Below, in pieces: positions 3,020 to 54,705 of a DNA stretch of 56,223 nucleotides. Every line of letters begins with the position of its first letter. Positions within the stretch are counted from its first letter, which is position 1. The notes under the pieces were generated by a model, which was given only the letters and a program-made list of their open reading frames with translations, had not been told where the DNA came from and ran no database searches. The stretch comes from a virus (taxonomy: Duplodnaviria; Caudoviricetes), in IMG/VR virus record IMGVR_UViG_3300006735_000039, positions 1 through 56,223 of that record; one strand, given 5' to 3'. Made by a program: the position numbers and the translations under genes.

Positions 3020-5077
3020 ATGCAAAACAAGCCAATCGTTATAAAAGATGGTGACGAAGGAGACGTGTTAAAAATATCTGATTTAGATATTTGCATTCCT
3101 AAGCAACCACCACTGGAAGAGATACTATTTAGTAATCTTTCAGATGACGAACAAAAGTGGAGTAGAACAGAGTTTCCTGAAGAATGGGAAGCAATGTCTG
3201 TTTCAGAAAGAGAGGCTTTCGCTTCTCAAGAGTTTGATAGAAGACTCAATGGTTTGTGGTTTATGAACAATGGTGTTCCAACATATATTACAGGCGTACA
3301 CTATTACTACATAAACTGGTGCAAGATAGATGTCGGCTACCCTGATTACAGGGATAGAGACAGAAGGTTCTTTACATTTTGGGAAGCATGCGTAAAAGAC
3401 CCCAAGTCTTACGGTATGGTTATGGTAAAACATAGACGAGAAGGTGCGTCTTGGAAAGGAGCAGCTATGGCTTTGTATTACATAACTCAAAACTTTAATG
3501 CTCACGGAGGATTGTTATCAAAAACTGGTAAGGATGCTAAGGATTTATTTGAAAAGGTTGTATATCTTTTCAGGGGAATGCCTGAGTTCTTTCAACCAAT
3601 CATTGATGGTACAGACAATCCAAAGTCAACTTTAAGTTTTAGAAAGCCTGGGGAAAGAATTACCAAAAATAACAAAAAAGTTTCTAAGTCTGAAGCTTTA
3701 GATTCTAAGATTGATTTTAGAAATACAAGAGATAACTCTTATGATTCTACTAAGTTAAAATTCTTCATGTCCGATGAAGCTGGTAAATGGAAAGAAGCTA
3801 GTTTAAAAAAGAACTGGCAGATTGTAAGACCTTGTTTAACACAAGGAATAAACATTTACGGAAAATGCTTTATGCCATCTACTGTTAATGAGATGACAGA
3901 AGGTGGTGACGAGTTGAAAGATGTTTGGGTTGATTCTGATATTAAAAATAAAGATGCTAATGGGTATACTTTATCTGGCTTATATAGATACTTTACTCCA
4001 GTATATGATGGGTACGAAGGATTTATAGATAAGTATGGCAACTCTGTTATCGAAACATCTGAATCTCCAGTTAAATCCGTGGAGGGACATATGATAGATA
4101 TGGGCTCAAAACAATATTTTGAAAACAGGAGAGAGGCTATAACAGATACTGCAAAACTTTCAGAAGAAAAAAGACAATATCCTTTTAGTTCTGAAGAGGC
4201 ATTTAGAAAAGAAGGTAATACTAGTATATTTGATTTAGAAAAAATATATCAACAACTAGATTACTTAGAAGATTACGGAGAGCGTTTAGTTACAAAGGGA
4301 AACTTTATATGGGCAAATGGAGTCCAGGATTCTGAGGTAACATTTAAGCCAGATAAGACTGGTAAGTTTATGATAAGTTGGACCCCTTCAGTAGATGACC
4401 AAAATTTATATTACGATAAACTAAACACTCCAGGTAATAAAGAAACAATAGTCGCAGGGTGTGACCCTGTAGACCACGATACAACGACTGATGGCAGACG
4501 CTCTGATGCTGCTGCTTATGTCTTTAAGAAATTTGGAATGGATTCTGAGCACGCTCACTCTTTTGTTTGTGAGTATTTAGCCAGACCTCCTAAAGTAAAA
4601 ATCTTTTACGAAGACATGGTTATGATGTGTAAGTTTTATGGTTGTGAAATATTAGTCGAGAATAATAAGATAGGACTAATAAACCATTTTAAAGAGAGAG
4701 GTTACGAAGCATATTTAATGCACAGACCTGAAAGCACACATACCAAGTTTAGTAGAAAGCAAAAAGAATACGGTGTTCCCACAACAGGAAAAGTTGTGAT
4801 AAACGCAATATCAGATTCTGTTCAAGCGTACATCTATGATTTTGTAGGGTATACTGAAGACGGAGATATAGGGGTTTGTTACTTCGATAGACTGTTGAAA
4901 GACTGGTCTCAGTACGAGCCAGAGAACAGAACGAAATATGATAGCACGATTGCTAGTGGATTAGCTTTAATAGCAGCTAACAAGAATGCTAAAAGAAAAG
5001 AAATAGAAAAGAAAGTGTCACAGCCTTTTGTTAGAAGGTATGATAACTCTGGTAATATGTCAAAACTAATTAGTTAA
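3020..5077 (+). CDS. terL: Terminase large subunit
   Basis: 685 aa. Walker A-like VKHRREGASW, Walker B FFMSDEAGKW, RNase H-type nuclease motifs (AGCDPVD, ILVENNK, YDSTIASGLAL). Directly upstream of portal. Confidence 0.92.
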   Translation: MQNKPIVIKDGDEGDVLKISDLDICIPKQPPLEEILFSNLSDDEQKWSRTEFPEEWEAMSVSEREAFASQEFDRRLNGLWFMNNGVPTYITGVHYYYINWCKIDVGYPDYRDRDRRFFTFWEACVKDPKSYGMVMVKHRREGASWKGAAMALYYITQNFNAHGGLLSKTGKDAKDLFEKVVYLFRGMPEFFQPIIDGTDNPKSTLSFRKPGERITKNNKKVSKSEALDSKIDFRNTRDNSYDSTKLKFFMSDEAGKWKEASLKKNWQIVRPCLTQGINIYGKCFMPSTVNEMTEGGDELKDVWVDSDIKNKDANGYTLSGLYRYFTPVYDGYEGFIDKYGNSVIETSESPVKSVEGHMIDMGSKQYFENRREAITDTAKLSEEKRQYPFSSEEAFRKEGNTSIFDLEKIYQQLDYLEDYGERLVTKGNFIWANGVQDSEVTFKPDKTGKFMISWTPSVDDQNLYYDKLNTPGNKETIVAGCDPVDHDTTTDGRRSDAAAYVFKKFGMDSEHAHSFVCEYLARPPKVKIFYEDMVMMCKFYGCEILVENNKIGLINHFKERGYEAYLMHRPESTHTKFSRKQKEYGVPTTGKVVINAISDSVQAYIYDFVGYTEDGDIGVCYFDRLLKDWSQYEPENRTKYDSTIASGLALIAANKNAKRKEIEKKVSQPFVRRYDNSGNMSKLIS

Positions 5078-18506: not shown

Positions 18507-19850
18507 ATGGCGAAAATGAGTGACAGTTTAATAGGCTATGGTGCAGCACAAGTATTTGATACCAGCCGCTCTGTAAATGTTTATAAAGCAGCTTTAGCAA
18601 AAAAAGAAAAAGATGCAAAAGCTGATGATGAAAAGTTTCTTAAATCTTTATCTGTTGACACCAAAGGAGTTCGTGCTATTGACGTTCCTAAGTTTACTGA
18701 AAAGTATAATGAGTTTATGGATTGGTCTGCTAAAAATCAGGTAGACCTTAAGAACCCTTCAAAAAATCCAGTAATATTTCAACAATTTCAGGTTAAAAAA
18801 AATGAGTTGTTACAGGATATTGCTGCGTCTAAGCAAGCTCAAGCTGCTCATAATTCAATGAGTGACATTATATTTAAAGGTAAAGAACAGTTTTATAACT
18901 CATCTAATATTAAGGGAGCCAATGCCCTTCATGAGACATCCATATATGATGATGGATTCCAGAGTGCCTTATCGTTTCAGCCAGGTAGAGATACTAATGC
19001 CGCTCTTGCAGCAGTGCCTGTTAAGGACCTTCATACGGAAACAACTTATGAAAACGAAGAAGGTGTTAAAACAAAAACGTTTAAGATAAAAGAAGGTGCT
19101 TTAGATAATGCTGTAGATTTATTTTACAATCAATATCAAATGGAATTTGAAAATGATTTTGATACAGAGCAAGAAGCTAGAGAATTTATAAAGAAAAATA
19201 TTAAGGGAAGAATTAAACAAGACTACCAACTTACTAGAGAGGGCGATGGAAAGGATGAAGAATTTGGTAGAGGAAGTAGAGTTGGTAAGATTGCTTATGA
19301 CTTCGAAGACCTTGACTCTGAGGCAGCTACAGCACTACTTTCCGATGAAAGTTTATTTGTTTCTTTTGGAGAATTTGAAGGACCTTTCTTGAACCCAAAA
19401 AGGGGTAAAGTTCCTCCTTTAAGAAAGATTGATTTCTCAACTGGTACATCAGAAACAAAGCCAATAACATTTAGAGATAAAGACGGAACAGATTACAAAG
19501 ATGTGATTCCTCAGTCATTTCTTATTGACAATGAAGGTAATCAATATATGAGCTTTTATAAGGATTCAAAAGCATTAACCACTAGTGAAAAAGAAACTCT
19601 TATTTCGAACAAGAGAAGTGACCTTATTTTAGATGGGATAACAGCAACTGAAGCTACAAAACAGGCTAAAGAGGTTATTAACAATTTAGACGGGAATGTA
19701 ATGATGTTTACTGATAAGATACCTAAAACTCAAATCAATACACATTATAATTTCTTGTACGATGCACTGACAGAGCGTGGTTTGTTTAAGGCTACAGCTA
19801 AACCACAGCCAACAAAAGATACAAACTTAAGAGATAAATACGGATATTAA
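18507..19850 (+). CDS. Internal virion / ejection protein (putative)
   Basis: 447 aa, between a small ejection protein and the giant protein. Confidence 0.5.
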   Translation: MAKMSDSLIGYGAAQVFDTSRSVNVYKAALAKKEKDAKADDEKFLKSLSVDTKGVRAIDVPKFTEKYNEFMDWSAKNQVDLKNPSKNPVIFQQFQVKKNELLQDIAASKQAQAAHNSMSDIIFKGKEQFYNSSNIKGANALHETSIYDDGFQSALSFQPGRDTNAALAAVPVKDLHTETTYENEEGVKTKTFKIKEGALDNAVDLFYNQYQMEFENDFDTEQEAREFIKKNIKGRIKQDYQLTREGDGKDEEFGRGSRVGKIAYDFEDLDSEAATALLSDESLFVSFGEFEGPFLNPKRGKVPPLRKIDFSTGTSETKPITFRDKDGTDYKDVIPQSFLIDNEGNQYMSFYKDSKALTTSEKETLISNKRSDLILDGITATEATKQAKEVINNLDGNVMMFTDKIPKTQINTHYNFLYDALTERGLFKATAKPQPTKDTNLRDKYGY

Positions 19851-22800
19851 TGGAAGAGTTAACTCTACTAGAAAATGACAAAGCTAAACTAGATGGTATA
19901 GTTCAGCAGATGATTACCAATAATGAGTCTGAAGATAATATTCGATTTGTTGTTAATGATTTTAAATCTAAGTACGGTAAAAAAAAAGAGGAGTCTTTAC
20001 CAGAATCTATAGACACATCTGCTCCATTAGAATCAGAAACCCCTTCTACAGAGTCTAATGAAATGACTATTGAAGAAGCCAAGTCTATTGCGAAAGATGA
20101 AGCTTCTAAAGGTTTGTGGGGAGAGCTTACTGATTGGGCTGTTGAAACTACTAATACGCTTGGAGCATATTATGGTGTTTCTTTAGGTGGTTTGGGTTCA
20201 GAAGTTGCACTAAAAATGCTTGATAGAGAGTCTGTAAAACAAATTTCTAAAGCTTCTTTAAAGTCTGAAGCTGAAAGAAAAGAAAAAATAAAAGCTGCAC
20301 AAAAAGCAGTTGAAGCAGACATAATGGCTAATCCAGAATCTAGTGTTGAGCAGTATGACTTTGTGATAGAGGAAATAAAAAGATTAGAAGAGGAGTATAG
20401 AAATAAGCCTTACAGTCCTTCAATGGATAAAAAGTTAGAGGAGCTGAATGCCCAGAAAAACATGATGGCTCCTGGTGCTGAAAAAGTAAAATCTGCTAGT
20501 TGGTTTAAGGGAAACGTATTAGATGCAACTGAAGAGACTGCAATATATCAGCCAACAGGAAGTATTGAAGATGCAAAAACTGGTGAAGACTTGGGGACTG
20601 TGAAAGGTTCTGAGGATGATGTATACTTAGCTACATATAAAAAGTTTTTAGAAGACACTAATCCTAAATCTTTAGAAGAGCATAATGAAAAAGTAAACTC
20701 TTTAAAAGAAAGTGGTAGTATTAAATTGTTGGAAGATGCTGAATCTAAATTTGAGATACAAGCTAATAACTGGTATAATCAACAGATTAATACTTCTTTA
20801 GAGCTAGCTAAAAAGAAAAAAAGAATAAATTCTGAAACTGGTGCAGAGTACACTCTTCAAGATGTAATTAATGAGTCTGATAATTTAACAAAAAATATTA
20901 AAAATTCAGAAAAAACTTTACTTGATTTAGATAAAAAAATAAAAGACAAAATAGAAAAATCTACATCAGCGTCAGAAGCTATAAAGTCTTCTATGCAAAA
21001 CGAATTTAACTCTGAAGCTGAAAAAATAGTTTCTTCTTATGAAGAGATGGCTAAAACTGCTACAACTCAAGAAGAGCTAGACAACATAAACAATAGGTTA
21101 AAATCAGATATTGCTAAGCTAGAGATAGATATAACAGCTAAATATTCCTCTAGATTTAATGATATAAGTGATGAAATAAACACATTAAATAGGCAAAGAG
21201 CTTCTACATACGATAAGTATAAAGATTCTGTAGATTCTTTTAATGATATTATCGGCTCTGATGATTTTGTAGAGTATAAAAATCTTACTTCTCAGTATAA
21301 TAATGTTTTTCAAAACACAGAAGAAATAATAAAAAAATACCCAACAGCATTAGCTAAAAAACAAGAAATTGAAGATAAACAAATAGAGTTAGACCTTACT
21401 AGAAAGAAAAGACTAGAAGGAGATGTTGGAGCTACTGTAAAGTCTGCTTGGAATTATATAAATAAAAAAGGCTCTCAGTATGCTGAAAGCTTATTAACTC
21501 TTGGTAGAACAGTTACTGCTGGTGATGATTATGATTTTTTAGAAAAACTTGGAGACCTGGTTGAATACCATCTTGAAGATAATCAAGTTCAATCCTCTAG
21601 CAACGAAAGAGCTTTGGTTGAAAAGGTTGTTCTTTTTTCAGACTTTAGATTAACCTTGGATGACAATGGAGAGGTTATTGACGTTAGAGATAAGGATGGT
21701 TATAAGGTTAGGAACGCAATAACATCTAAACAGGTTGTTGCTGATTTTTTAAGTATACCTAAAGATGAAAGACCAAAAGAAACTACGGAAGTAAATGATA
21801 ATATTTTATTTACAAAGTTTCTAGACACATCTCTTGATATGGCTGCTTTGATATATGGTGGTCAGTTTGCTACAAAATCTTTATCTGCTTTAAGCAAGTT
21901 TTATAAGTTTAATAAAATCGCTGGTCTTACTTCTGTTGGTTATGTTTTCGAACACAATAGTTTATATAACGAAGCTCTTGACGCAGGCATGTCTAAAGAT
22001 GATGCTGGTAAGTTTGCGATGTCTGGTGCTGTAATTATAGGGGCTTTAGAAAATCTAAGTCCTGGAGATGCTATATTTGATGGTGCTATAAAAAGAAAAA
22101 TAACTAAAGAGTACCTAGAAATATTAGCAAAAGGTAAAGCAACAAAAGGTGATGTTGCTAGAGTTATTGCTAGAAATGTTGCTGTTGAAATACCAAAAGA
22201 AAACATACAGGAATTTTCTCAGACTGTTGCAGATAGAGTTGTTAAAGCTGTTGCTAATAATGTGTTAAACAATAATTATTTTGATACAGAAATAGAAAAA
22301 GAAGAGCTTTTAGAAAGCTTTATATTAACAACAATGAGTACGGGGTCTTTAGCTGCAAAAACTCAAGCTTCAGCTCAAAGAACTTCTACCTTGGAATCTA
22401 ATGCTTTGTATACCGCAGCTAAAAATAAAGACCAAGACAAGATGTTCCAAAAACTTGACATGATGGTTGAGGATGGAACTATAGAGCAAGACGCTGCTAA
22501 TAGTACTAAAGAGTTAATTATTGAGGCTAAAGATTTATTCTCTAAACTACCAGAGGGGAAGTATACTCCAGTAATGGAAAGTCAAATACTTGAGCTACAA
22601 CTACTTAAGAATAAAGCTTTAAAAGAACAAAAATCTTCTGATGCCGTATTTGGAAAGCAATACGAAACAACTATAAATCAGATTGATAAAGAAATAAATG
22701 CCATCATAAACTCTAAGTCACCAAGATTATTCTTTAATGAAAGAGTTGAGAATCTAAATGTAGAAAAGGCTCCTAAGTTATCTCAGTTAAATCAACAATA

Positions 22801-25800
22801 TATATCTGGTGAAATAACTCAAGAGCAGTATGATGCTAAACTTAAGTCTATAGTTAACCCAAGTAAGGGTGTTGTCTTAGACGCAATACAAAGTTTCGGA
22901 GAAAAGATTGGTAAAAAGCTTAGTAGAAAGCAGGTTATTCAGCCAATAAGTATTCAGAAAGGAATTGCTATAGCTGATGCTTACGAAGCAATGCAGAGTA
23001 ACCCTAATGACACAGAGGTTAAGCAAGCATACGATGCTTTTAAACAAGAGACTAAAGAGCAGTTCGAACACTTCCAGTCTTTAGGATTTAAATTTATGCC
23101 TCAAAAAGAAGGTCAGGCTTATGGTACTTCTAAGGAGATGGCTGATGATGTTTCTGATAATAAGACTCTTAAATTTTTACCTACTGAAAATGAGTTTAGA
23201 ACTGGTGACGCTTCTGTAGACCATCCTCTACTAGAAAAAACAGGAATTGTTATTGATGGATACGAGCTATCATTTAATGATATGTTTAGAGCTGTTCATG
23301 ATATGGCTGGTCACGCTGCTCATGGATTTCAGTTTGGACCACTAGGTCAAACAAATGCTTATCTTGGTCACGCAAAAACTTACAGCCCGTTAGCTCAGAG
23401 AGCTTTGTTCTCAGAAACTATGGGTCAAAATAGTTATAATAACTTTGGCTCTCATCTTAGAAATGAAGATGGAAAAATACCAAAGAAGGGAGAGGCTGGG
23501 TTTGTTCCTTTATCTATGAGACCTTACGCCCCGCAAAAAGCTGGATTACTTTCTGTTGAGTTGATGACTGATGTTGAGATGCAGAGAAGAGTTCTTGATA
23601 CTCCTTTCCAAGACTTGGTCCTTAACAATATAGATGTAGAGCTTGATAACATTCTTGCTAAGATTGAAAATCAAGAAGACCTTACAGAGCAAGAAATTGA
23701 TGACGCTAAAAAATACCTAGACCAAATATTTGACCAGGTAATAAATTCTAATATAACTCAGCAAGGAAAAAATATTGTAACACAATACCTTGAGCTTGTT
23801 GAAAATACCATTGATAATTATGAAAACATCATTACTACTAAGACTGTCACAGTTGTCGAAACCAAAGTTGGAACGTACGCTGAGAGAGGTGCGATTAAGA
23901 AAAGAGTCTCAGAATACTCAAAACAAGTCAGACCAGCAAGAGAAAGACTCGTTGGAAGGATAGTTCAGGTTGAAGGCTTGGAGCTTCCAGAGGGAAGTGT
24001 AGCCGTTCTTAACCAAGATAATGACGGAGTATTCATTGAGGTTGTAGACAGAGAAACTGGAACTAGAAGTCAGCGTGTAGATTTAGGAACAAACAACCCT
24101 AATGAAATATCCATTGAGAATGTAGAGATGGATGAGTTTGATAGACCCGCTTCTGCGCAATTAAAGTTTGGAGATACCAACATGACCGTTGTAGACCCTA
24201 CTCTAGTTATGGATTTAGCTATTGAAAAGCACGAAGAGGTTAATCCAATATTTGAACAAGATGTTGAAACTATTCAGTATGGTATAGAAACTGTTACTGA
24301 GCAAGAAATAAGTGAAAGGATAGAAAAAACTGATGAAGAGGTCAGGATAGAAGAGGAAAATAAAACTGATATTGAAAAGATTAAGGAGCAAATAGAAATG
24401 TCTGCTTTATCTAATAAGTCTTTGAAGGGCAAGGGCTTACAGCACTTAGTGGATAGATTACAAAATGCTTTCCCTAACGCTCCAATCGCTATAATTAATA
24501 GCAAGCAAGCAGAGTCTATACTTCCTGGCACTAACGCAGGAAAATCAAAAGGTTTTGCTTATGGTGGTAAGGTTTACATAGTGGGAGATAATGTTACTAT
24601 GGATACACCTATCCATGAGATGGCTCACATATTTAATTCTTACGCTAAGAAATACGAGCCAAAACTATACAAGAAAGGTTTAGAATTAGTTAAGGGAACT
24701 AAGTACGAAAAGGATGTTAGAAACAATCCTAGCTATAGCAACCTTGACGAAGAGGGAATATTAGAAGAGGCTCTTGCTCAAGCTATTGGTGAGAAGGGTG
24801 CTCTACTAGAGCAGGGTAAGAGAAAAGGATTCCAGGCTTGGTTAAAGAAACTATTTGATATAATCAAGAGTAAAGGTATTCCTGTAAACTTAACCTTAGG
24901 GCAGTACACAGACTTTGTTGCTGGAAGGTTAACATCTGGAGAAACTATTTCTGATATAACAGCAGAAGAGTTAAACGAAATAGATTCAAACCCTAAACTA
25001 AAAGCTTTATTTTCTTTTGTATATGATAACGGATTAGATGCTAACAACGAAGCTGTTGTTCAATCTAGAATACTAGAGTCTCTAAGAGAGGCTAAGAAGT
25101 ATGTTCAAGAGGGGATGGATGCAAAGTTAATAGCAAAAGCTACTGGGTGGTCTCAAGGTCCTGATGGGTTCTGGAGATTTGAGGTTTCTGATGCAGATTT
25201 AAATTTTAATCCAAAAGTAAAATCAGATATTATTGATAGCTTTGAATTATTTTTTGCAAGAGGAAACGAAGGTCTATTAGAGTTTTCTGATAAAATTTCA
25301 TCGTTATTTGATGGTAATGTTTTAGCAGAGTTTTATTCAGAACTAAAAAACATTAATGTAGAGTTTAGTCTTTTTGAAGGTAGCGGAAATAGTAAAGGAG
25401 CCGTAAAAACAATAATGCCAAGGCATATAGTTAATGCTGCTGCTTTATTAGATAATGCAAGCTTAGAGATTAGTGATAAAGATAGAAGCGAGTTAGTCAG
25501 CATGATTGATGACTTTGCTGATGGAATAGGTTTAGATAAGATAACAAATGATATAAGCGTAAATCCTTTAGTATCCTCGGATAAATATAAGGCTATGTAC
25601 CTTTCAGCAATTTTTTCACAAGAAGTCGCTGAAGTTAGAGCATTGCTTAAACAAAGAGATTCTGTAAAGGATAGCGATGCAAGAGAAGATGTTAATAAAT
25701 ATTTTCAAATAGAAGCAGAAATATTAGATATTCAAGATGAAGTTAAAAAAACACATCCTTTTTTAGAAAATACTTTTGATACAGTAACAATTATACCTGA

Positions 25801-28800
25801 AAACAAAGCATACGCATCCGCAGAGCTTATGATGATGGAAGCTGAGGCTGCAACTGTTGAAGAGAGAAAAGATGTGTTTTATAATAATCTTTTTGAAGAA
25901 ATAAAAAGCACCTTTGTTCACGAACAACAACATGTGGCGCAAGGGCTTGCTAGTGTTTCGAAAGGTGGCAACATGGAAATGGTTTCTATATTTGATGCAG
26001 CTCTAAGAGAGTACGTTGCGGATGACACAAGAACGAAGGAAGAGAAATACAAAAAAACATTTGAAGCTTACCAAAATTTGTTTGGAGAACAAGAGGCAAG
26101 GATTGTTCAGGATAGAATGAATATGACTCAAGAACAACTAAATGAAGATGTTGTTGATTTTGGAGACATAAAAAATTCTATAGTTGTTTCTCACGCACAA
26201 TATATTCTTGCTGAAACATCTAGGGAGTTTGAAACAGATTTATTTTCAAGCAGCGAACAAGTAATCAGTAAGGTAATGGAGCTTGGTTTAAAGCAAGCGC
26301 AAGACAGAATTAAGCCTAGGTTTAGTTTTGCTCCAGAAAATCCTACAGAAAGAAAAGGTTTTAATGATTGGTTTGCAAACTCACAAATTGTAAATGAAGA
26401 GGGTACTCCACAAGTTTACTACCACGGAACAACTCGTGTGTTTGATAACTTTGATATGGGTAGAACATCACAACTTGTTGATGCTATGTTTTTTACTCCT
26501 GACCCAGAGTTTGCTAACAAATACACAGAGCCATCAGCAGTAGAAAAAGTTAGAGGAGACTCTGTTTTACCTAACATAATGCCTGCATACATAAGCATAC
26601 AAAATCCTTTTGATTACGAAAATCCAAGTCATGTAAAAAGACTTGTAAACTCTTTAGGTAATGTGGATATTGAGTTATTTGCTATAAGCCAGGGTATTGA
26701 CCCAAGTGAAAATAGCAGAGATAATATTGGCAGAATTATATCGTCTAATACAAATAATAACTGGGGATACTTAGAGCCTTTTGGTAATAAGATAAAATCT
26801 CTTGGATATGATTCTATGTATATAGGTGAAAGAGGTCGTAAGAATGTTGCTATATTCGACCCCAACCAAGCTAAGTCAGTATACTCTAATGACTATAGCA
26901 CGACTAAGTTTTCTAAACCTACTCAATTTGATATTAAAAAGTTAGTATCTGATTTAGTTGAGCAAGGGTTTACTAAGGATAAAATACTAGAGTCCTTTTC
27001 ACAATTAGGTTACGACTTGAACGATGTGAATACAGCGTTTGATTCTTTGATGAATGATAGTATCAAAAATAATTTTGTTAAAGAGCAAGAAATTGCAAGA
27101 CAAAATAAACTTGTTAACGCTAATGAAGATGTTTCTATTTGGCAAGGGATTACTGATAAGTTAAAAAATGCAGGAAAGTATGTTGCTAATTTATTTACTC
27201 CTCAAGGTCAGTTAAGAAAAGAAGTTTACACTCTTATAGAAGACAAGGGTCAGAATGTAAAGGCTATGATTGCCAATATTCAATTTTCTCAAAGAAAACT
27301 AAACAGAGCTTTAAAAGGTGTTGTTGATGGTTCTATGAAAATGAATAACCCTAGTTATGCTGAAGTAATAAAAGATGTTGAAAAAGCATTAAGGGGTCAG
27401 CTTTCTTTTAGTGAGCTAACAAAAATGTATAACGTAGAGGTTTCTGAGATTGTTGAATCTATGAGAAATCAAATAGATAGTTTATCATCTCAGCTTATAG
27501 ACTCTGGATTTACCCAAGATGATATTAAGCTTAAAATAATAGACAACCTTGGTTCTTATTTAACACGTTCTTACGCATTGTATGATGACCCTTCGTTTAG
27601 CAGTAAGACTGGTCCAGAAATTAGAGAAGCTTTTGCTAAAGACCCTAACAAGTCTGCCATACTTAATAACGCTATAAACTATCTTAGAAGAGAACAGTCT
27701 AATCAAATATATGAAAGGTTGATGAACTTTTATGAAGGAGAGTTAACTAGAGTAAATCAAGAATATCAAAGTGGTCAAATAACTAAAGAAGATTACGAAT
27801 CGCAAAAGTCTGAAATTGTTGACACTTTAAATAATAAAGATGGAAAATTAACTGAAGTTTTTGAAAATGAATTGCTTAATGTTATTGATAGCATACTGAA
27901 TAAACAAGAAGTCTCTTTCTTAGGTGTTACTGGTGCTTTATCAACAAAAGACTCTAACGTATTAAAACAGAGAAAAGAAATATCTCCAGAACTTAGAGCT
28001 TTAATGGGAGAGTATAATGACCCAATGTACAATTATGCTAACACTGTTTTAAAAGTATTCTCATTAATTGAACAACAAAAACTTCTTAAAAAATTAAAAA
28101 AAGTTGGTATGAACGATTTTATATACCAACCTAACGACCCTAACAGACCAGGAGATGCTGTTAGAATAGCAGCTGAATCTAATAGTGCTTTAGCTCCTTT
28201 GAATGGAATGTATATAGACCCTACAGTTCTTGCTGAAATACAGGATGTTACAAGTCCTGAACAAAGAGGATTACTTTTACAGAGGTTATTTGATTTTGTT
28301 AGCTGGACTAGAGAAAGTAAAACAACTTTATCTCCAATGACGCACATGAGAAATGTTATTGGTAACTTAGGGTTCATAATGATGAATGGTCATATAGGAT
28401 TTACAAGCCCAAAAGCTGGAGGAAACTCTATAAGAACCGTCATGTATGACCTTAACATTTTAGATTCTAAAATGGCAATGCTTCTTGGTGCTAAAAAGAT
28501 TCTTACAGACCAACACAGACAAGAGACTGAGCAGCTGATACAAAAGCTTACAGCCTTAGGTGTTGTCAGACAGAATGTTTCTGTTAATGATATTATAGAC
28601 TTATCTCAGAATGGAGACTTTGATTACTACTTTTCTAAAAATATGGATGGATACCAGTTGAATGAAAACGACAGGTTGAAAATGATGATGAGCAAAGGTA
28701 AGAAAGGCATAGATATGGGTAGAAAAAAATCTCAAGACTTGTATCAGGCTGAGGATGACATGTTTAAGATTTACGCATTCGCAATGGAGCGTAATAGATA

Positions 28801-29140
28801 TGAGTCAGCTTTAAGAAAGAAGGGTATGACTGAGGCTGAGATAGACGACTTTGTTGCGGAAAGAGTAAAGAATACCTACCCCACCTATTCTAGAGTTGGT
28901 AAAGCTGTTGAGTATATTAGAAAGGTTCCTTTCTTGGGCGACTTCCTGTCATTTAAGTACGAGTCTATAAGAACAATGAAGAATAGTATTCTTATTGCAA
29001 AAAGCGATATGATGGACCCAGACCTTAGAGTTGAGGGAGCTAAAAGAATGGCTTCAACTATTGGTTACTTAGGCTTAAAAACTGCTGGGTTTAAACTTGT
29101 TGCAGGTTTTGCTTCTAATGCTTTCTTAGGATTGTTTTGA
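19850..29140 (+). CDS. Giant polyvalent virion cargo protein (zincin-like metallopeptidase motifs, LPD23-like segment, ADP-ribosyltransferase-like domain)
   Basis: 3096 aa. FRAVHDMAGH (~23285), HEMAH (24614), ATGWSQGPDGFWRFEVSD (~25140), HEQQH..GEQEAR (25919), YYHGT..MFFTP..LGYDS (~26420-26820). Frame continues past TGA 29138-29140. Confidence 0.75.
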   Translation: MEELTLLENDKAKLDGIVQQMITNNESEDNIRFVVNDFKSKYGKKKEESLPESIDTSAPLESETPSTESNEMTIEEAKSIAKDEASKGLWGELTDWAVETTNTLGAYYGVSLGGLGSEVALKMLDRESVKQISKASLKSEAERKEKIKAAQKAVEADIMANPESSVEQYDFVIEEIKRLEEEYRNKPYSPSMDKKLEELNAQKNMMAPGAEKVKSASWFKGNVLDATEETAIYQPTGSIEDAKTGEDLGTVKGSEDDVYLATYKKFLEDTNPKSLEEHNEKVNSLKESGSIKLLEDAESKFEIQANNWYNQQINTSLELAKKKKRINSETGAEYTLQDVINESDNLTKNIKNSEKTLLDLDKKIKDKIEKSTSASEAIKSSMQNEFNSEAEKIVSSYEEMAKTATTQEELDNINNRLKSDIAKLEIDITAKYSSRFNDISDEINTLNRQRASTYDKYKDSVDSFNDIIGSDDFVEYKNLTSQYNNVFQNTEEIIKKYPTALAKKQEIEDKQIELDLTRKKRLEGDVGATVKSAWNYINKKGSQYAESLLTLGRTVTAGDDYDFLEKLGDLVEYHLEDNQVQSSSNERALVEKVVLFSDFRLTLDDNGEVIDVRDKDGYKVRNAITSKQVVADFLSIPKDERPKETTEVNDNILFTKFLDTSLDMAALIYGGQFATKSLSALSKFYKFNKIAGLTSVGYVFEHNSLYNEALDAGMSKDDAGKFAMSGAVIIGALENLSPGDAIFDGAIKRKITKEYLEILAKGKATKGDVARVIARNVAVEIPKENIQEFSQTVADRVVKAVANNVLNNNYFDTEIEKEELLESFILTTMSTGSLAAKTQASAQRTSTLESNALYTAAKNKDQDKMFQKLDMMVEDGTIEQDAANSTKELIIEAKDLFSKLPEGKYTPVMESQILELQLLKNKALKEQKSSDAVFGKQYETTINQIDKEINAIINSKSPRLFFNERVENLNVEKAPKLSQLNQQYISGEITQEQYDAKLKSIVNPSKGVVLDAIQSFGEKIGKKLSRKQVIQPISIQKGIAIADAYEAMQSNPNDTEVKQAYDAFKQETKEQFEHFQSLGFKFMPQKEGQAYGTSKEMADDVSDNKTLKFLPTENEFRTGDASVDHPLLEKTGIVIDGYELSFNDMFRAVHDMAGHAAHGFQFGPLGQTNAYLGHAKTYSPLAQRALFSETMGQNSYNNFGSHLRNEDGKIPKKGEAGFVPLSMRPYAPQKAGLLSVELMTDVEMQRRVLDTPFQDLVLNNIDVELDNILAKIENQEDLTEQEIDDAKKYLDQIFDQVINSNITQQGKNIVTQYLELVENTIDNYENIITTKTVTVVETKVGTYAERGAIKKRVSEYSKQVRPARERLVGRIVQVEGLELPEGSVAVLNQDNDGVFIEVVDRETGTRSQRVDLGTNNPNEISIENVEMDEFDRPASAQLKFGDTNMTVVDPTLVMDLAIEKHEEVNPIFEQDVETIQYGIETVTEQEISERIEKTDEEVRIEEENKTDIEKIKEQIEMSALSNKSLKGKGLQHLVDRLQNAFPNAPIAIINSKQAESILPGTNAGKSKGFAYGGKVYIVGDNVTMDTPIHEMAHIFNSYAKKYEPKLYKKGLELVKGTKYEKDVRNNPSYSNLDEEGILEEALAQAIGEKGALLEQGKRKGFQAWLKKLFDIIKSKGIPVNLTLGQYTDFVAGRLTSGETISDITAEELNEIDSNPKLKALFSFVYDNGLDANNEAVVQSRILESLREAKKYVQEGMDAKLIAKATGWSQGPDGFWRFEVSDADLNFNPKVKSDIIDSFELFFARGNEGLLEFSDKISSLFDGNVLAEFYSELKNINVEFSLFEGSGNSKGAVKTIMPRHIVNAAALLDNASLEISDKDRSELVSMIDDFADGIGLDKITNDISVNPLVSSDKYKAMYLSAIFSQEVAEVRALLKQRDSVKDSDAREDVNKYFQIEAEILDIQDEVKKTHPFLENTFDTVTIIPENKAYASAELMMMEAEAATVEERKDVFYNNLFEEIKSTFVHEQQHVAQGLASVSKGGNMEMVSIFDAALREYVADDTRTKEEKYKKTFEAYQNLFGEQEARIVQDRMNMTQEQLNEDVVDFGDIKNSIVVSHAQYILAETSREFETDLFSSSEQVISKVMELGLKQAQDRIKPRFSFAPENPTERKGFNDWFANSQIVNEEGTPQVYYHGTTRVFDNFDMGRTSQLVDAMFFTPDPEFANKYTEPSAVEKVRGDSVLPNIMPAYISIQNPFDYENPSHVKRLVNSLGNVDIELFAISQGIDPSENSRDNIGRIISSNTNNNWGYLEPFGNKIKSLGYDSMYIGERGRKNVAIFDPNQAKSVYSNDYSTTKFSKPTQFDIKKLVSDLVEQGFTKDKILESFSQLGYDLNDVNTAFDSLMNDSIKNNFVKEQEIARQNKLVNANEDVSIWQGITDKLKNAGKYVANLFTPQGQLRKEVYTLIEDKGQNVKAMIANIQFSQRKLNRALKGVVDGSMKMNNPSYAEVIKDVEKALRGQLSFSELTKMYNVEVSEIVESMRNQIDSLSSQLIDSGFTQDDIKLKIIDNLGSYLTRSYALYDDPSFSSKTGPEIREAFAKDPNKSAILNNAINYLRREQSNQIYERLMNFYEGELTRVNQEYQSGQITKEDYESQKSEIVDTLNNKDGKLTEVFENELLNVIDSILNKQEVSFLGVTGALSTKDSNVLKQRKEISPELRALMGEYNDPMYNYANTVLKVFSLIEQQKLLKKLKKVGMNDFIYQPNDPNRPGDAVRIAAESNSALAPLNGMYIDPTVLAEIQDVTSPEQRGLLLQRLFDFVSWTRESKTTLSPMTHMRNVIGNLGFIMMNGHIGFTSPKAGGNSIRTVMYDLNILDSKMAMLLGAKKILTDQHRQETEQLIQKLTALGVVRQNVSVNDIIDLSQNGDFDYYFSKNMDGYQLNENDRLKMMMSKGKKGIDMGRKKSQDLYQAEDDMFKIYAFAMERNRYESALRKKGMTEAEIDDFVAERVKNTYPTYSRVGKAVEYIRKVPFLGDFLSFKYESIRTMKNSILIAKSDMMDPDLRVEGAKRMASTIGYLGLKTAGFKLVAGFASNAFLGLF

Positions 29141-52258: not shown

Positions 52259-52561
52259 TTAGTGTAATGTAATTTCTACTGTGTAATTATCCGAACTAGA
52301 ATCCATTATCATTGTGTAACTAATCTCGTACCAATCTTGTTCTTCGTTCCACTTGCACTCAAAGTTGTCAATAAAGGTATACATATGAATTGCTTTGATG
52401 CTTTTTATTACCTCGCTGAATGATAGCTTGGAGTTGCGCCCACTCATAAAGCATAACCTCGCGCCATCATCTGTTACTCTTACTGAAAAGAAATCATCTA
52501 GTGTTACTATCGTGTCTTCCAATAACGAACCCAAGTTCTCAAGCTTTTCTAATTTTGTCAT
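52259..52561 (-). CDS. Hypothetical early protein
   Basis: 100 aa. Starts 21 nt after the predicted HHR2 cleavage site. Confidence 0.55.
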   Translation of the reverse strand: MTKLEKLENLGSLLEDTIVTLDDFFSVRVTDDGARLCFMSGRNSKLSFSEVIKSIKAIHMYTFIDNFECKWNEEQDWYEISYTMIMDSSSDNYTVEITLH

Positions 52562-52576
52562 AATAAATTTAGTTTA

Positions 52577-52736
52577 GTTACAGACTAGACAATCACATCT
52601 CTCTTGATGCAGTTGGTAGTATGCCCATCAATACTATCTATTCCTGTACCATCTACGGATAGCTTTACATGGATGCAAGCATAATCTACTGATTGTTATT
52701 GTCTAGTTTCAACCTTTAAGGTCTCATCAGTATAAC
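52577..52736 (-). ncRNA. Type I hammerhead ribozyme HHR2 with long stem III insertion
   Basis: - strand: GUUAUA CUGAUGA GACCU-UAA-AGGUU GAAA CUAGACAAU-[~105 nt]-AUUGUCUAG UC/ UGUAAC. Complete core and three stems. Predicted cut between 52583 and 52582. Confidence 0.85.
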
Positions 52737-52765
52737 TTGTGTATTTTATGGTCGGATTGTCCGAC

Positions 52766-52930
52766 CTATTTGTACTCTGGTGGTATCCTGCCCTCACAAA
52801 AATTATTATCGCATTCATCGGTATCCTCGTTGAGGTACCCCATGCAGTGAGGACACTTGTCGGACATAAATTCCTCTCGCTCTTTTTGATAGGTTTCGTT
52901 TTCGAATTTCTCTAATTCTTGATTTTCCAT
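52766..52930 (-). CDS. Small Zn-ribbon protein (54 aa)
   Basis: MENQELEKFENETYQKEREEFMSDKCPHCMGYLNEDTDECDNNFCEGRIPPEYK, CxxC..CxxxxC. Confidence 0.55.
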   Translation of the reverse strand: MENQELEKFENETYQKEREEFMSDKCPHCMGYLNEDTDECDNNFCEGRIPPEYK

Positions 52931-52942
52931 ATTAATATAAAC

Positions 52943-53056
52943 CTAGTTACAGAATGTATGTAAAGTATATAGTGCGAATATGAATACTGCGCCAGCAATA
53001 ACGCAAGCGCATACAGAATAGATTAAAATCTTTGCTATCGGTAGTATTGTCTTCAT
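52943..53056 (-). CDS. Single-TM micropeptide (37 aa)
   Basis: MKTILPIAKILIYSVCACVIAGAVFIFALYTLHTFCN. The longer 99-aa call runs through the ribozyme and overlaps the upstream gene. Confidence 0.55.
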   Translation of the reverse strand: MKTILPIAKILIYSVCACVIAGAVFIFALYTLHTFCN

Positions 53057-53072
53057 GAGTAATATAATTTTA

Positions 53073-53136
53073 GTTACAGACAAGGAATACTCTGTACTTC
53101 TTCCTTGTTTCGGACTTCCATCCTCATCAGTGTAAC
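53073..53136 (-). ncRNA. Type I hammerhead ribozyme HHR1
   Basis: - strand: GUUACA CUGAUGA GGAU-GGAA-GUCC GAAA CAAGGAA-[13 nt]-UUCCUUG UC/ UGUAAC. Canonical core, GNRA-capped stem II. Predicted cut between 53079 and 53078. Confidence 0.92.
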
Positions 53137-53153
53137 ATGGTCGGATAGTCCGA

Positions 53154-53573
53154 CTACGCCATTTCAGGAGTAAGACACTTTGCAAGTGCCTCCCCAATAA
53201 TAGCGAACTCATCCTTTGTAAGAGTGCAGTCATCCGATTCAACCAGCTTGATGATTTGCTCTAGCGTATCAACCTCCTTAACTTTCGGCTTGTGGTCGGT
53301 GATGTAGTATTCCTTGGTAGCTTTATCTATTACCATCTTTAGTGGTGTACCATCCCATTCCTTGTGGGTAGTTACTTTGCGTATCGTTCTGGTTAGCGTA
53401 TCTACGAATTTGTTGCCTTTAGCTCCAGCTTTAGCGTAGCTTTCAGTAGCCAATTCGCATAGTGATTTGCCATCTTCACCTATCAAGGATTGCTTGATTA
53501 GTTCAGTTACTTTTGCGCCGTTACGAATAGACGATGTGATTGCAGTTTTTAACTGCGATTTGAAATTGCTCAT
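53154..53573 (-). CDS. First early gene, hypothetical protein
   Basis: 139 aa, first ORF downstream of the tandem early promoters. Confidence 0.6.
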   Translation of the reverse strand: MSNFKSQLKTAITSSIRNGAKVTELIKQSLIGEDGKSLCELATESYAKAGAKGNKFVDTLTRTIRKVTTHKEWDGTPLKMVIDKATKEYYITDHKPKVKEVDTLEQIIKLVESDDCTLTKDEFAIIGEALAKCLTPEMA

Positions 53574-53946: not shown

Positions 53947-53978
53947 CAAAGATAAGACAAATTTTTGAAACTACCAAA
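53947..53978 (-). promoter_or_regulatory. Strong early promoter (Bacteroidota -33/-7)
   Basis: - strand TTTG, 20 nt, TATCTTTG, then CACCAGC. Confidence 0.75.
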
Positions 53979-54164
53979 CATATTTTGAAAAAACTTTCAC
54001 TTTACTCCAGCGTTACTCTAGGCGTTCTCGGTTCTATCCCTACTCCCGTAGGTAGGTACTAACCTAGTGCTGTTTCTAGTGAGTCGGAAAATCCGACCTT
54101 CTCTAGTGGTAATCAAGATGTCAATCTAGTGCAGTCCATGAGGTCGTTCCCTCAATTGCTGGTG

Positions 54165-54195
54165 CAAATATCGGAATTTATTTTTAACTACCAAA
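54165..54195 (-). promoter_or_regulatory. Second, duplicated early promoter
   Basis: - strand TGTTTGGTAGTT..GATATTTGCACCAGC, 19-nt spacer. Shares TGTTTGGTAGTT and TTTGCACCAGC with 53947-53978. Confidence 0.65.
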
Positions 54196-54391
54196 CAAAA
54201 AACGTAAAAAGATTAAAAAAACTTTATAAGTTGTTGAAAGCCAACAAGTTACAAAGGTAGATTTTTTACTGGTATCTAGTGCCGTATCTGGTGAGGGGTG
54301 TATTGTGCCGTCTGTCTGTCTATCTAGGCGTACTCTAGTGGCGTGTAAAGGCATATCTTTTTGCAAAGGTAGTATCTACTAGTTCCATTGT

Positions 54392-54650
54392 TGTGCGTGC
54401 GTGTGCGCGCCCCTATGCGTGTCATGTGCATGCGCCCATCATGTGTGTGCGTGTGTGTACGTGAGCGCAAGCGTGTATGTGCGTGCCTATGTGCGTGCGT
54501 GCATACGTGGGTACACGGGTACAGGTATCGGGTTTCTGTTATGCGTTGTACGTGTGTATATATATATATAATGCCAAATCTCTGTACGTGCCGCCCTTTT
54601 TTACCTACTTACAACATATATATTATATAGTATATATTATATATATATGT
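54392..54650. repeat. Alternating purine-pyrimidine low-complexity tract ((GT/GC)n then (TA)n)
   Basis: GTGCGTGCGTGTGCGCGC..GTGTGTGCGTGTGTGTACGTG..GTGTATATATATATAT..TATATATATGT. Confidence 0.8.
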
Positions 54651-54705
54651 CGCAAAATGCTAAAATGCTACCTAGAAGCCCCGTAACTTATTGACTCATA
54701 GAATC

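Follow-up and report, generated by a model that had tools for sequence, protein, structure and literature searches.

Two predicted type I hammerhead ribozymes between small genes of a marine podophage, and the covarying phage family to which they belong

Locus and structure of the two elements

The window analysed here is the whole of IMG/VR virus record IMGVR_UViG_3300006735_000039 (56,223 bp, G+C 36%, completeness estimate 91%), from a virulent-looking marine podophage of ~60 kb. A run of small open reading frames (ORFs) begins at position 53573 on its minus strand and continues into recombination and replication genes, as judged from the ORF list and family searches, and two elements within this run, here called HHR1 and HHR2, had been proposed from the letters alone to be hammerhead ribozymes with a full core and three paired stems. 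Both were confirmed in the sequence of the minus strand, with coordinates correct to within one base. The genes and parts of the locus, in the direction of the minus strand, are:

53154..53573, minus strand: 139-aa gene before HHR1, opening the minus-strand cluster
53140..53154, minus strand: hairpin upstream of HHR1, after the stop codon of the 139-aa gene (6-bp stem, 3-nt loop)
53136-53073, minus strand: HHR1, compact type I hammerhead, predicted cut between C53079 and U53078
53136-53131 (5' strand) and 53078-53073 (3' strand), minus strand: HHR1 stem I, 6 bp
53130-53124, minus strand: HHR1 CUGAUGA core
53123-53112, minus strand: HHR1 stem II, 4 bp, tetraloop
53111-53109, minus strand: HHR1 GAA
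53108-53080, minus strand: HHR1 stem III, 8 bp including A15.1-U16.1, 13-nt loop
53079, minus strand: HHR1 C17
53057..53078, minus strand: HHR1 leader after the predicted cut, 22 nt, predicted 5'-OH, before ATG 53056
52766..53056, minus strand: two-gene block between the predicted cuts (37-aa and 54-aa ORFs)
53056-52943, minus strand: 37-aa hydrophobic ORF, first gene after HHR1
52930-52766, minus strand: 54-aa Cys-rich ORF, last gene before HHR2
52750..52766, minus strand: hairpin upstream of HHR2, after the stop codon of the 54-aa gene (7-bp stem, 3-nt loop)
52737-52576, minus strand: HHR2, type I hammerhead, predicted cut between C52583 and U52582
52737-52731 with 52582-52576, minus strand: HHR2 stem I, 7 bp, one U-G
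52730-52724, minus strand: HHR2 CUGAUGA core
52723-52711, minus strand: HHR2 stem II, 4 bp, 5-nt loop
52710-52708, minus strand: HHR2 GAA
52707-52698 with 52593-52584, minus strand: HHR2 stem III, 10 bp, closing the insert
52697-52594, minus strand: HHR2 insert in the stem III loop, 104 nt
52583, minus strand: HHR2 C17
52562..52582, minus strand: HHR2 leader after the predicted cut, 21 nt, predicted 5'-OH, before ATG 52561
52259..52561, minus strand: 100-aa gene, downstream of HHR2

The predicted downstream product of HHR1 starts at 53078, 22 nt ahead of the ATG at 53056, and that of HHR2 at 52582, 21 nt ahead of the ATG at 52561, exactly as had been calculated. The stem III insert of HHR2, earlier put at ~105 nt, is present and measures 104 nt. 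Class criteria were taken from the available text of PMC3088659 (C3 U4 G5 A6 N7 G8 A9, G12 A13 A14, A15.1-U16.1, H17). HHR1 and HHR2 both carry every hammerhead core base, with C at position 17, and both have type I topology, with stem I open and stems II and III closed. Pairs 1.1-2.1, 10.1-11.1 and 15.1-16.1 are U-A, G-C and A-U in HHR1, with no core-adjacent mispair, and U-A, a G-U wobble and A-U in HHR2. The minimum free energy (MFE) fold of HHR1 alone is the hammerhead three-way junction, and that of a 201-nt HHR2 region is a three-way junction.

Chance expectation, family searches and covariation

Both strands of the window were scanned with a hammerhead descriptor, using mononucleotide shuffles as controls, and exactly two complete type I hammerheads were found in the 56 kb. 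Relaxed descriptor thresholds gave 0.15 matches per window over 100 shuffles, and strict thresholds (stem I at least 6 bp, stem II at least 4 bp, stem III at least 7 bp), which both elements pass, gave 1 match in total across 1500 shuffled windows.

Relatives were sought in IMG/VR with a pattern that fixed only the core, GAAAC and the 3' strand of stem I, leaving the 5' strand of stem I unforced, producing 82 matches in 70 loci. The unforced strand was complementary in 78 of the 82 and switched in step with its partner, GUUACA pairing with 3' UGUAAC and GUAACA with UGUUAC; one of the remaining four was cut by a contig end, and three, copies of one sequence, did not pair. After removal of this non-pairing sequence, the matches were reduced to an alignment of 46 distinct sequences (A2), in which 99.9% of 690 cells pair and 7 of 15 pairs vary on both sides; the observed covariation was reached by 0 of 500 shuffles, and slid partners paired at 27–38%. 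A covariance model (R1) built from A2 was used to search 70 sources (L018–L085 plus L003 and L106), producing 122 matches in 67 of the 70, with HHR1 scoring 53.4 bits. Thirty distinct R1 matches lay outside the pattern: among them stem I takes at least 6 other sequences, N7 is U, C or A, and the cut-site triplet is GUC, AUC, UUC or GUA, all of which hammerhead rules allow. In the model-fitted alignment 13 of 15 pairs vary on both sides and 99.6% of 1138 cells pair, a count that leans toward structure because the alignment was fitted to the model. The window lineage by itself holds a single informative change, stem II U-G to C-G.

With a leave-lineage-out model (R2, 50 sequences, none from the window lineage), HHR1 was recovered at 47.4 bits (E=4.4e-10). 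For HHR2 the 5' half scored 34.0 bits (E=1.6e-6), its 3' half being misplaced as the model cannot span the insert; the next match in the window scored 17.3 bits. The covariation that the sequence-only reading had asked for in related phages is present in both alignments, and the type I hammerhead identity of the elements is strongly supported by comparative evidence. At the level of sequence and predicted structure, these searches show that HHR1 and HHR2 are not chance matches but members of a large, covarying family of hammerheads found between phage cistrons.

An ORF of at least 30 aa with an ATG start begins 13–49 nt (median 31) after the predicted cut in 72 of the 82 pattern matches, and the stop codon of the upstream ORF often abuts stem I. 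Among the 67 loci with matches, 42 hold 2–4 hammerheads, always on the same strand and spaced by 242–1673 nt; these array loci are not independent, because many are near-duplicates and the number of lineages is far smaller. Up to four same-strand hammerheads lie within 2–3 kb in L027, L060 and L025, each between small ORFs. A Pistol ribozyme was seen on one phage contig (L061 5072-5136, minus strand; Rfam, 70.6 bits), with a same-strand hammerhead ~560 nt away.

Two complete ~60-kb phages whose terminases are 41–42% identical to that of the window carry one family hammerhead each. Two unannotated members, scoring 70.7 and 69.3 bits, were found in the cultured T7-like Pelagibacter phage Eistla, in the small-gene spacers gp15/gp16 and gp19/gp20 of the early region, upstream of the RNA polymerase gene, and a degenerate copy was found in Flavobacterium phage elemoF:

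MT375521.1 8785-8847 and 10039-10106 (L115 2786-2848 and 4040-4107): the two Eistla hammerheads
MT497071.1 16043-16104 (L123 2044-2105), minus strand: elemoF element, degenerate copy, 31.8 bits

The core of the elemoF element is intact, but pairing is broken at two positions of stem II and at one of stem III; the element lies among a series of small genes, with a start codon 28 nt downstream. It is overlapped by an annotated plus-strand ORF, phanotate40, which is probably spurious.

Related lineages, hairpins and leaders

Public contigs fall into two haplotypes, a window type and a sister type. The window-type contig (L106) is 99.35% identical to the window, with 0 of 21 differences inside either ribozyme, and is uninformative because it is too close. 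Sister-type contigs (L003, L004, L089, L094, L109) are 84–90% identical to the window, and the 1247 nt around HHR1 are 89.6% identical. HHR1 differs there at 3 of 68 nt (stem II U-G to C-G, one change in loop II and one before stem I), with no pair or core base lost. Loss of the core in close relatives had been named in the earlier reading as a refuting outcome; the sister lineage keeps the HHR1 core and lacks HHR2 altogether. When 50,697 phage records were searched at the DNA level with a 1.9-kb piece of the region, no match was found. When the hairpin followed by CUGAUGA(G) was used as a scan pattern, only the sister lineage was recovered among 11 IMG/VR stretches, and in metagenomes 4 of 29 stretches were true, with no added diversity.

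The GTCGGA-NNN-TCCGAC hairpin that precedes each ribozyme occurs in 10 copies between 44692 and 54097, against 0 by chance, all of them within the minus-strand early and replication cluster and eight of them at sites without a ribozyme. Most copies directly follow a stop codon, with 15–30 nt left to the next ATG. The long untranslated region ahead of the first gene holds two, and a further two are intragenic with the loop inverted. Gene swaps between strains break at these hairpins. The 6–7-bp stem with a 3-nt loop resembles N4-type promoters, and such a role for the hairpin was considered and rejected, as no virion RNA polymerase was found and a host-type promoter motif lies upstream. A role as a general part of the ribozyme was likewise rejected, an upstream hairpin with a stem of at least 6 bp being present in 33 of 51 family members vs 22 of 51 control segments.

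A standard leader had been described as the product of ribozyme cleavage. This part of the proposal did not stand: TAACTAAA followed by 9–12 nt and ATG also precedes the early genes at 53573 and 49910, both of which lack a hammerhead, and the leader pattern as a whole gave 5 matches vs 2 expected, weak on its own. The region of the 37-aa ORF (53057-52944) is flanked by two copies of TCTGTAACTA and the ORF is absent from the sister lineage, so that HHR1 stands directly before the 54-aa gene there. A DNA contig (run X3 record 21) lacks the 54-aa ORF (52949/52768).

In the sister-type contig L003, a 93-nt element (4697-4789) replaces window positions 52750-52212, with a 7-bp outer stem around two hairpins, one of which has a T-arm-like loop. 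Its fold z-score is -1.7 and it matches no known Rfam RNA. A tRNA-like identity was tried for positions 4703-4775 and rejected, as ARAGORN reported nothing, also with relaxed settings, and no Rfam tRNA match with E<=10 was found in 116 nt.

Host and transcription of the cluster

The terminase is 36–40% identical to those of Flavobacterium phages (genus Elemovirus), Cellulophaga phages and an uncultured 60.9-kb podovirus. A Bacteroidota-type promoter motif lies upstream of the gene cluster:

53947..53978, minus strand: TTTG, 20-nt spacer, TAnnTTTG

This motif has 9 matches in the window vs 2.5 expected, and a near-duplicate of the 53978-53947 promoter unit ends at 54156 on the minus strand. The terminase relatives and the enriched motif point to a member of the Bacteroidota as host, probably within the Flavobacteriia, and hence to ribozymes that would lie within a transcript of the host polymerase. 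The two promoter units (53947-53978 and ~54156-54200, minus strand) are near-identical and each is followed by TTTGCACCAGCAA; they lie 370–600 nt upstream of the first early gene, with a long leader between that is rich in ACTAG repeats.

Proposed processing and alternative explanations

The sequence-only reading had the phage process its own early polycistronic RNA. The setting agrees with this proposal: both elements lie among small minus-strand genes, and a Bacteroidota-type promoter motif stands ahead of the cluster. Cleavage itself is a prediction from sequence, and for HHR2 it is doubtful. We consider it likely that both elements are type I hammerheads that would cut the minus-strand early-gene transcript between cistrons, HHR1 being very likely active. 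Transcription would start most likely at the host-type promoters near 53.95 and 54.16 kb, and the ribozymes would fold as the RNA emerges and cut after the GUC triplet, after C53079 and after C52583. The 3' end of each upstream fragment would consist of the GTCGGA hairpin and the folded ribozyme and would carry a 2',3'-cyclic phosphate. Each downstream fragment would have a 5'-OH at its start, followed by a short leader, rich in A and U, that reaches the AUG after 22 or 21 nt. Three mRNAs would result, carrying the 139-aa gene, the block of the 37-aa and 54-aa genes, and the 100-aa gene onward, and their stability and translation would be uncoupled. We infer self-cleavage in vivo, the promoter, the early timing and an effect on expression.

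Several observations weigh against this processing scheme. The promoter and the early timing are read from motifs and gene layout. A search with the Rfam hammerhead models, which had been named as a check, produced no match at gathering score in the window (RF00163, RF00008, RF02276 and RF03152 included); in E-value mode the best was Hammerhead_3 at 17.6 bits (gathering score 48.5), a partial match to the 5' half of HHR2. No family member from 12 loci reaches an Rfam gathering score either, the best model on these being RF03152 (RAGATH-1 hammerhead) with 27.3 and 23.8 bits vs a gathering score of 56.3, and RF03152 gave no match at E<=10 on HHR1 or HHR2. Loop II of HHR1 is a tetraloop without the U that this loop contains in at least 90% of family members. 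Fast cleavage at low Mg2+ needs a tertiary contact of loop II with stem I, or a pseudoknot, and inspection by eye identified none. An RNA-library contig of the sister lineage (X20 record 15) spans the HHR1 cut site, and could be uncut RNA or carried-over DNA. When folded together with its upstream hairpin, the window HHR1 adopts a competing MFE fold in which the 5' arm of the hairpin pairs with, and sequesters, the 3' strand of stem II (-26.1 kcal/mol, z-score -3.2).

This last fold would suit a regulated ribozyme, in which the GTCGGA hairpin competes with the hammerhead and cleavage occurs in some transcripts or conditions only. We regard such regulation as improbable, as the MFE fold of the sister-lineage HHR1 with its hairpin is hairpin plus hammerhead, without the competing fold, HHR2 and its hairpin also fold as a hammerhead, co-transcriptional folding favours the local hairpin, and the upstream hairpin is inconsistent in the family, by the counts given above. 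Strain differences in cassettes fall exactly at the TCTGTAACTA leader and the hairpins, as would be expected of repeat or recombination modules that act as DNA at cassette borders and are merely hammerhead-like, with no RNA catalysis; this we find barely credible, given that compensatory changes in all three stems, a free N7 and adherence to the NUH rule are signatures of RNA structure, and that every element lies on the coding strand.

The activity of HHR2 is doubtful because of its G-U at 10.1-11.1 and an insert without parallel; it is hammerhead-derived, and may be slow, weak or inactive. Among 77 distinct family rows the one for HHR2 itself is alone in having G-U, whereas 75 have G-C, and according to the available text of PMC3088659 this pair is the most conserved after 15.1-16.1. 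The IMG/VR pattern search found no other hammerhead with a stem III region of 95–125 nt, and sequence searches gave no relatives of, or counterpart to, the 104-nt insert. HHR2 was seen only in window-type genomes (L106 and DNA run X3), and in the sister lineage the 93-nt element, which is unrelated, stands where HHR2 and the 100-aa gene would be. All of this also suits a reading in which only HHR1 works and HHR2 is a relic, disabled by the stem III insertion and the mutated 11.1 base, leaving the junction before the 100-aa gene uncut or cut slowly. We take this to be a real but minority possibility. HHR2 looks maintained rather than decaying, because all core bases are intact and its 7-bp stem I and perfect 10-bp stem III are longer than those of most family members; its stem II and loop II agree with the family consensus, and, as far as the available text of PMC3088659 goes, a G-U wobble still counts as a pair and hammerheads with very large loops are known. 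A separate RNA-library contig (X18 record 4) matches 34 nt of the 5' half of HHR2 with 4 differences; its next 22 letters complete a compact hammerhead like that of L032, and the contig ends 9 nt beyond the cut, not at the cut. All four sequencing runs compared with the region consist of contigs, a form of data that does not display RNA ends, and no position at which many molecules start or stop was listed in them.

Were both sites cut, a 496-nt RNA (53078-52583) with the 37-aa and 54-aa genes would be released with a 5'-OH and a 2',3'-cyclic phosphate, and the pair could then serve as an excision device, the RNA possibly being circularised, whether through reversal of the cleavage or by an RtcB-type ligase of the host. 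Its ends could re-form a nicked hammerhead because both ribozymes share the 3' strand of stem I, as well as the first leader bases, and the same stem I variant is found in both copies in 12 of 12 two-match IMG/VR loci, although these represent only about three lineages. Ligase circularisation of hammerhead-delimited RNAs is established for viroids (PMC6765202, available text). We nevertheless hold excision to be highly improbable: no back-joined contig was found in four runs, which show skips only and hold relatives with other gene orders; the available text of PMC3088659 reports that circular or spliced products of clustered bacterial hammerheads were sought and none found; and duplication or a common leader motif would equally give a shared stem I.

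A wider proposal, which we hold unlikely, combines hammerhead, leader and hairpin into a portable junction module used in gene swaps between strains. A pair with the same stem I would release a gene-sized RNA whose ends re-form the hammerhead and are ligated into a circular mRNA, and the 5'-OH ends of linear products would escape host 5'-end-dependent decay or sensing.

Comparison with known systems

Hammerheads in phages, tandem arrangements around genes and the idea of transcript processing are already in print. Hammerheads clustered in prophages have been proposed to process long phage transcripts, and tandem arrangements cleave in vitro (Perreault et al. 2011, PMC3088659, available text). 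As in the window, several same-strand hammerheads there bracket single genes or short blocks of phage genes; the examples in the available text come from Clostridium, Azorhizobium and Agrobacterium prophages with types I to III mixed, whereas the window is a virulent-looking marine podophage with type I only and a repeated hairpin before each ribozyme. HHphage of haloviruses HF1/HF2 lies 13 nt before an early start codon, with a mapped 5' end within 3 nt of the cut (PMC3088659, available text), and likewise places a hammerhead shortly before an early-gene start codon in the polycistronic transcript of a lytic virus. It differs, by the same source, in having an insertion in the catalytic core, in belonging to an archaeal high-salt virus, and in being a single copy before the first ORF rather than intergenic. 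The RAGATH-1 hammerhead (RF03152) is also a type I hammerhead preceded by a hairpin, but the hairpin of the window is an independent repeat that also occurs at eight ribozyme-free places.

T7 early mRNA is processed by RNase III, a host protein enzyme that acts at long duplex sites, and RiboJ is a synthetic, engineered insulator. The predicted sites are like both in that cuts between cistrons or behind a promoter give defined 5' ends and neighbour-independent expression, and the likeness to T7 extends to the finding of family members in the early region of a T7-like pelagiphage. T7 relies on a protein enzyme and RiboJ is engineered, whereas here the RNA would cut itself.

A literature search for hammerheads or ribozymes in pelagiphages returned nothing relevant, and sequences of this kind may already be present in the supplementary alignments of PMC3088659. 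What may be new is how large and regular the family is in marine phages, its absence from Rfam matches and its presence in early regions of cultured pelagiphage. The purpose of bacterial and phage self-cleaving ribozymes is described in the available text of a 2019 review (PMC6765202) as still unsettled and in need of more work. The window adds a clean case and points to many same-strand arrays below Rfam thresholds in marine phage contigs; the members in cultured Eistla and the degenerate copy in elemoF make the family testable in real infections, and its compact members are natural candidates for insulator parts.

Other features of the window

No Pfam or PHROG match was found for the 139-aa gene, which has 97% aa identity in two IMG/VR contigs. 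The sole Pfam match of the 100-aa gene, to DUF5575_C, was sub-threshold, and a peptide-pattern search of IMG/VR gave no relatives of it. The genes that follow the small-ORF run are:

Downstream of the small-ORF run, minus strand: Erf-like annealing protein, exonucleases, replication initiator, primase/helicase, PhoH

A 3096-aa ORF on the plus strand (19850-29140) was considered as an N4-type virion RNA polymerase and rejected, as it has polyvalent-protein domains instead and lacks a D-x-D-G-D motif, and sequence search gave no PDB relative. Its domains are an ART-PolyVal ADP-ribosyltransferase domain (residues 2182-2348) and LPD23, as in large phage polyvalent proteins. At 54390-54660, within a 1.2-kb non-coding gap between divergent gene clusters, a CA/CG/CAC-rich tract is followed by runs of AT dinucleotides, and this tract may be an origin or a regulatory region.

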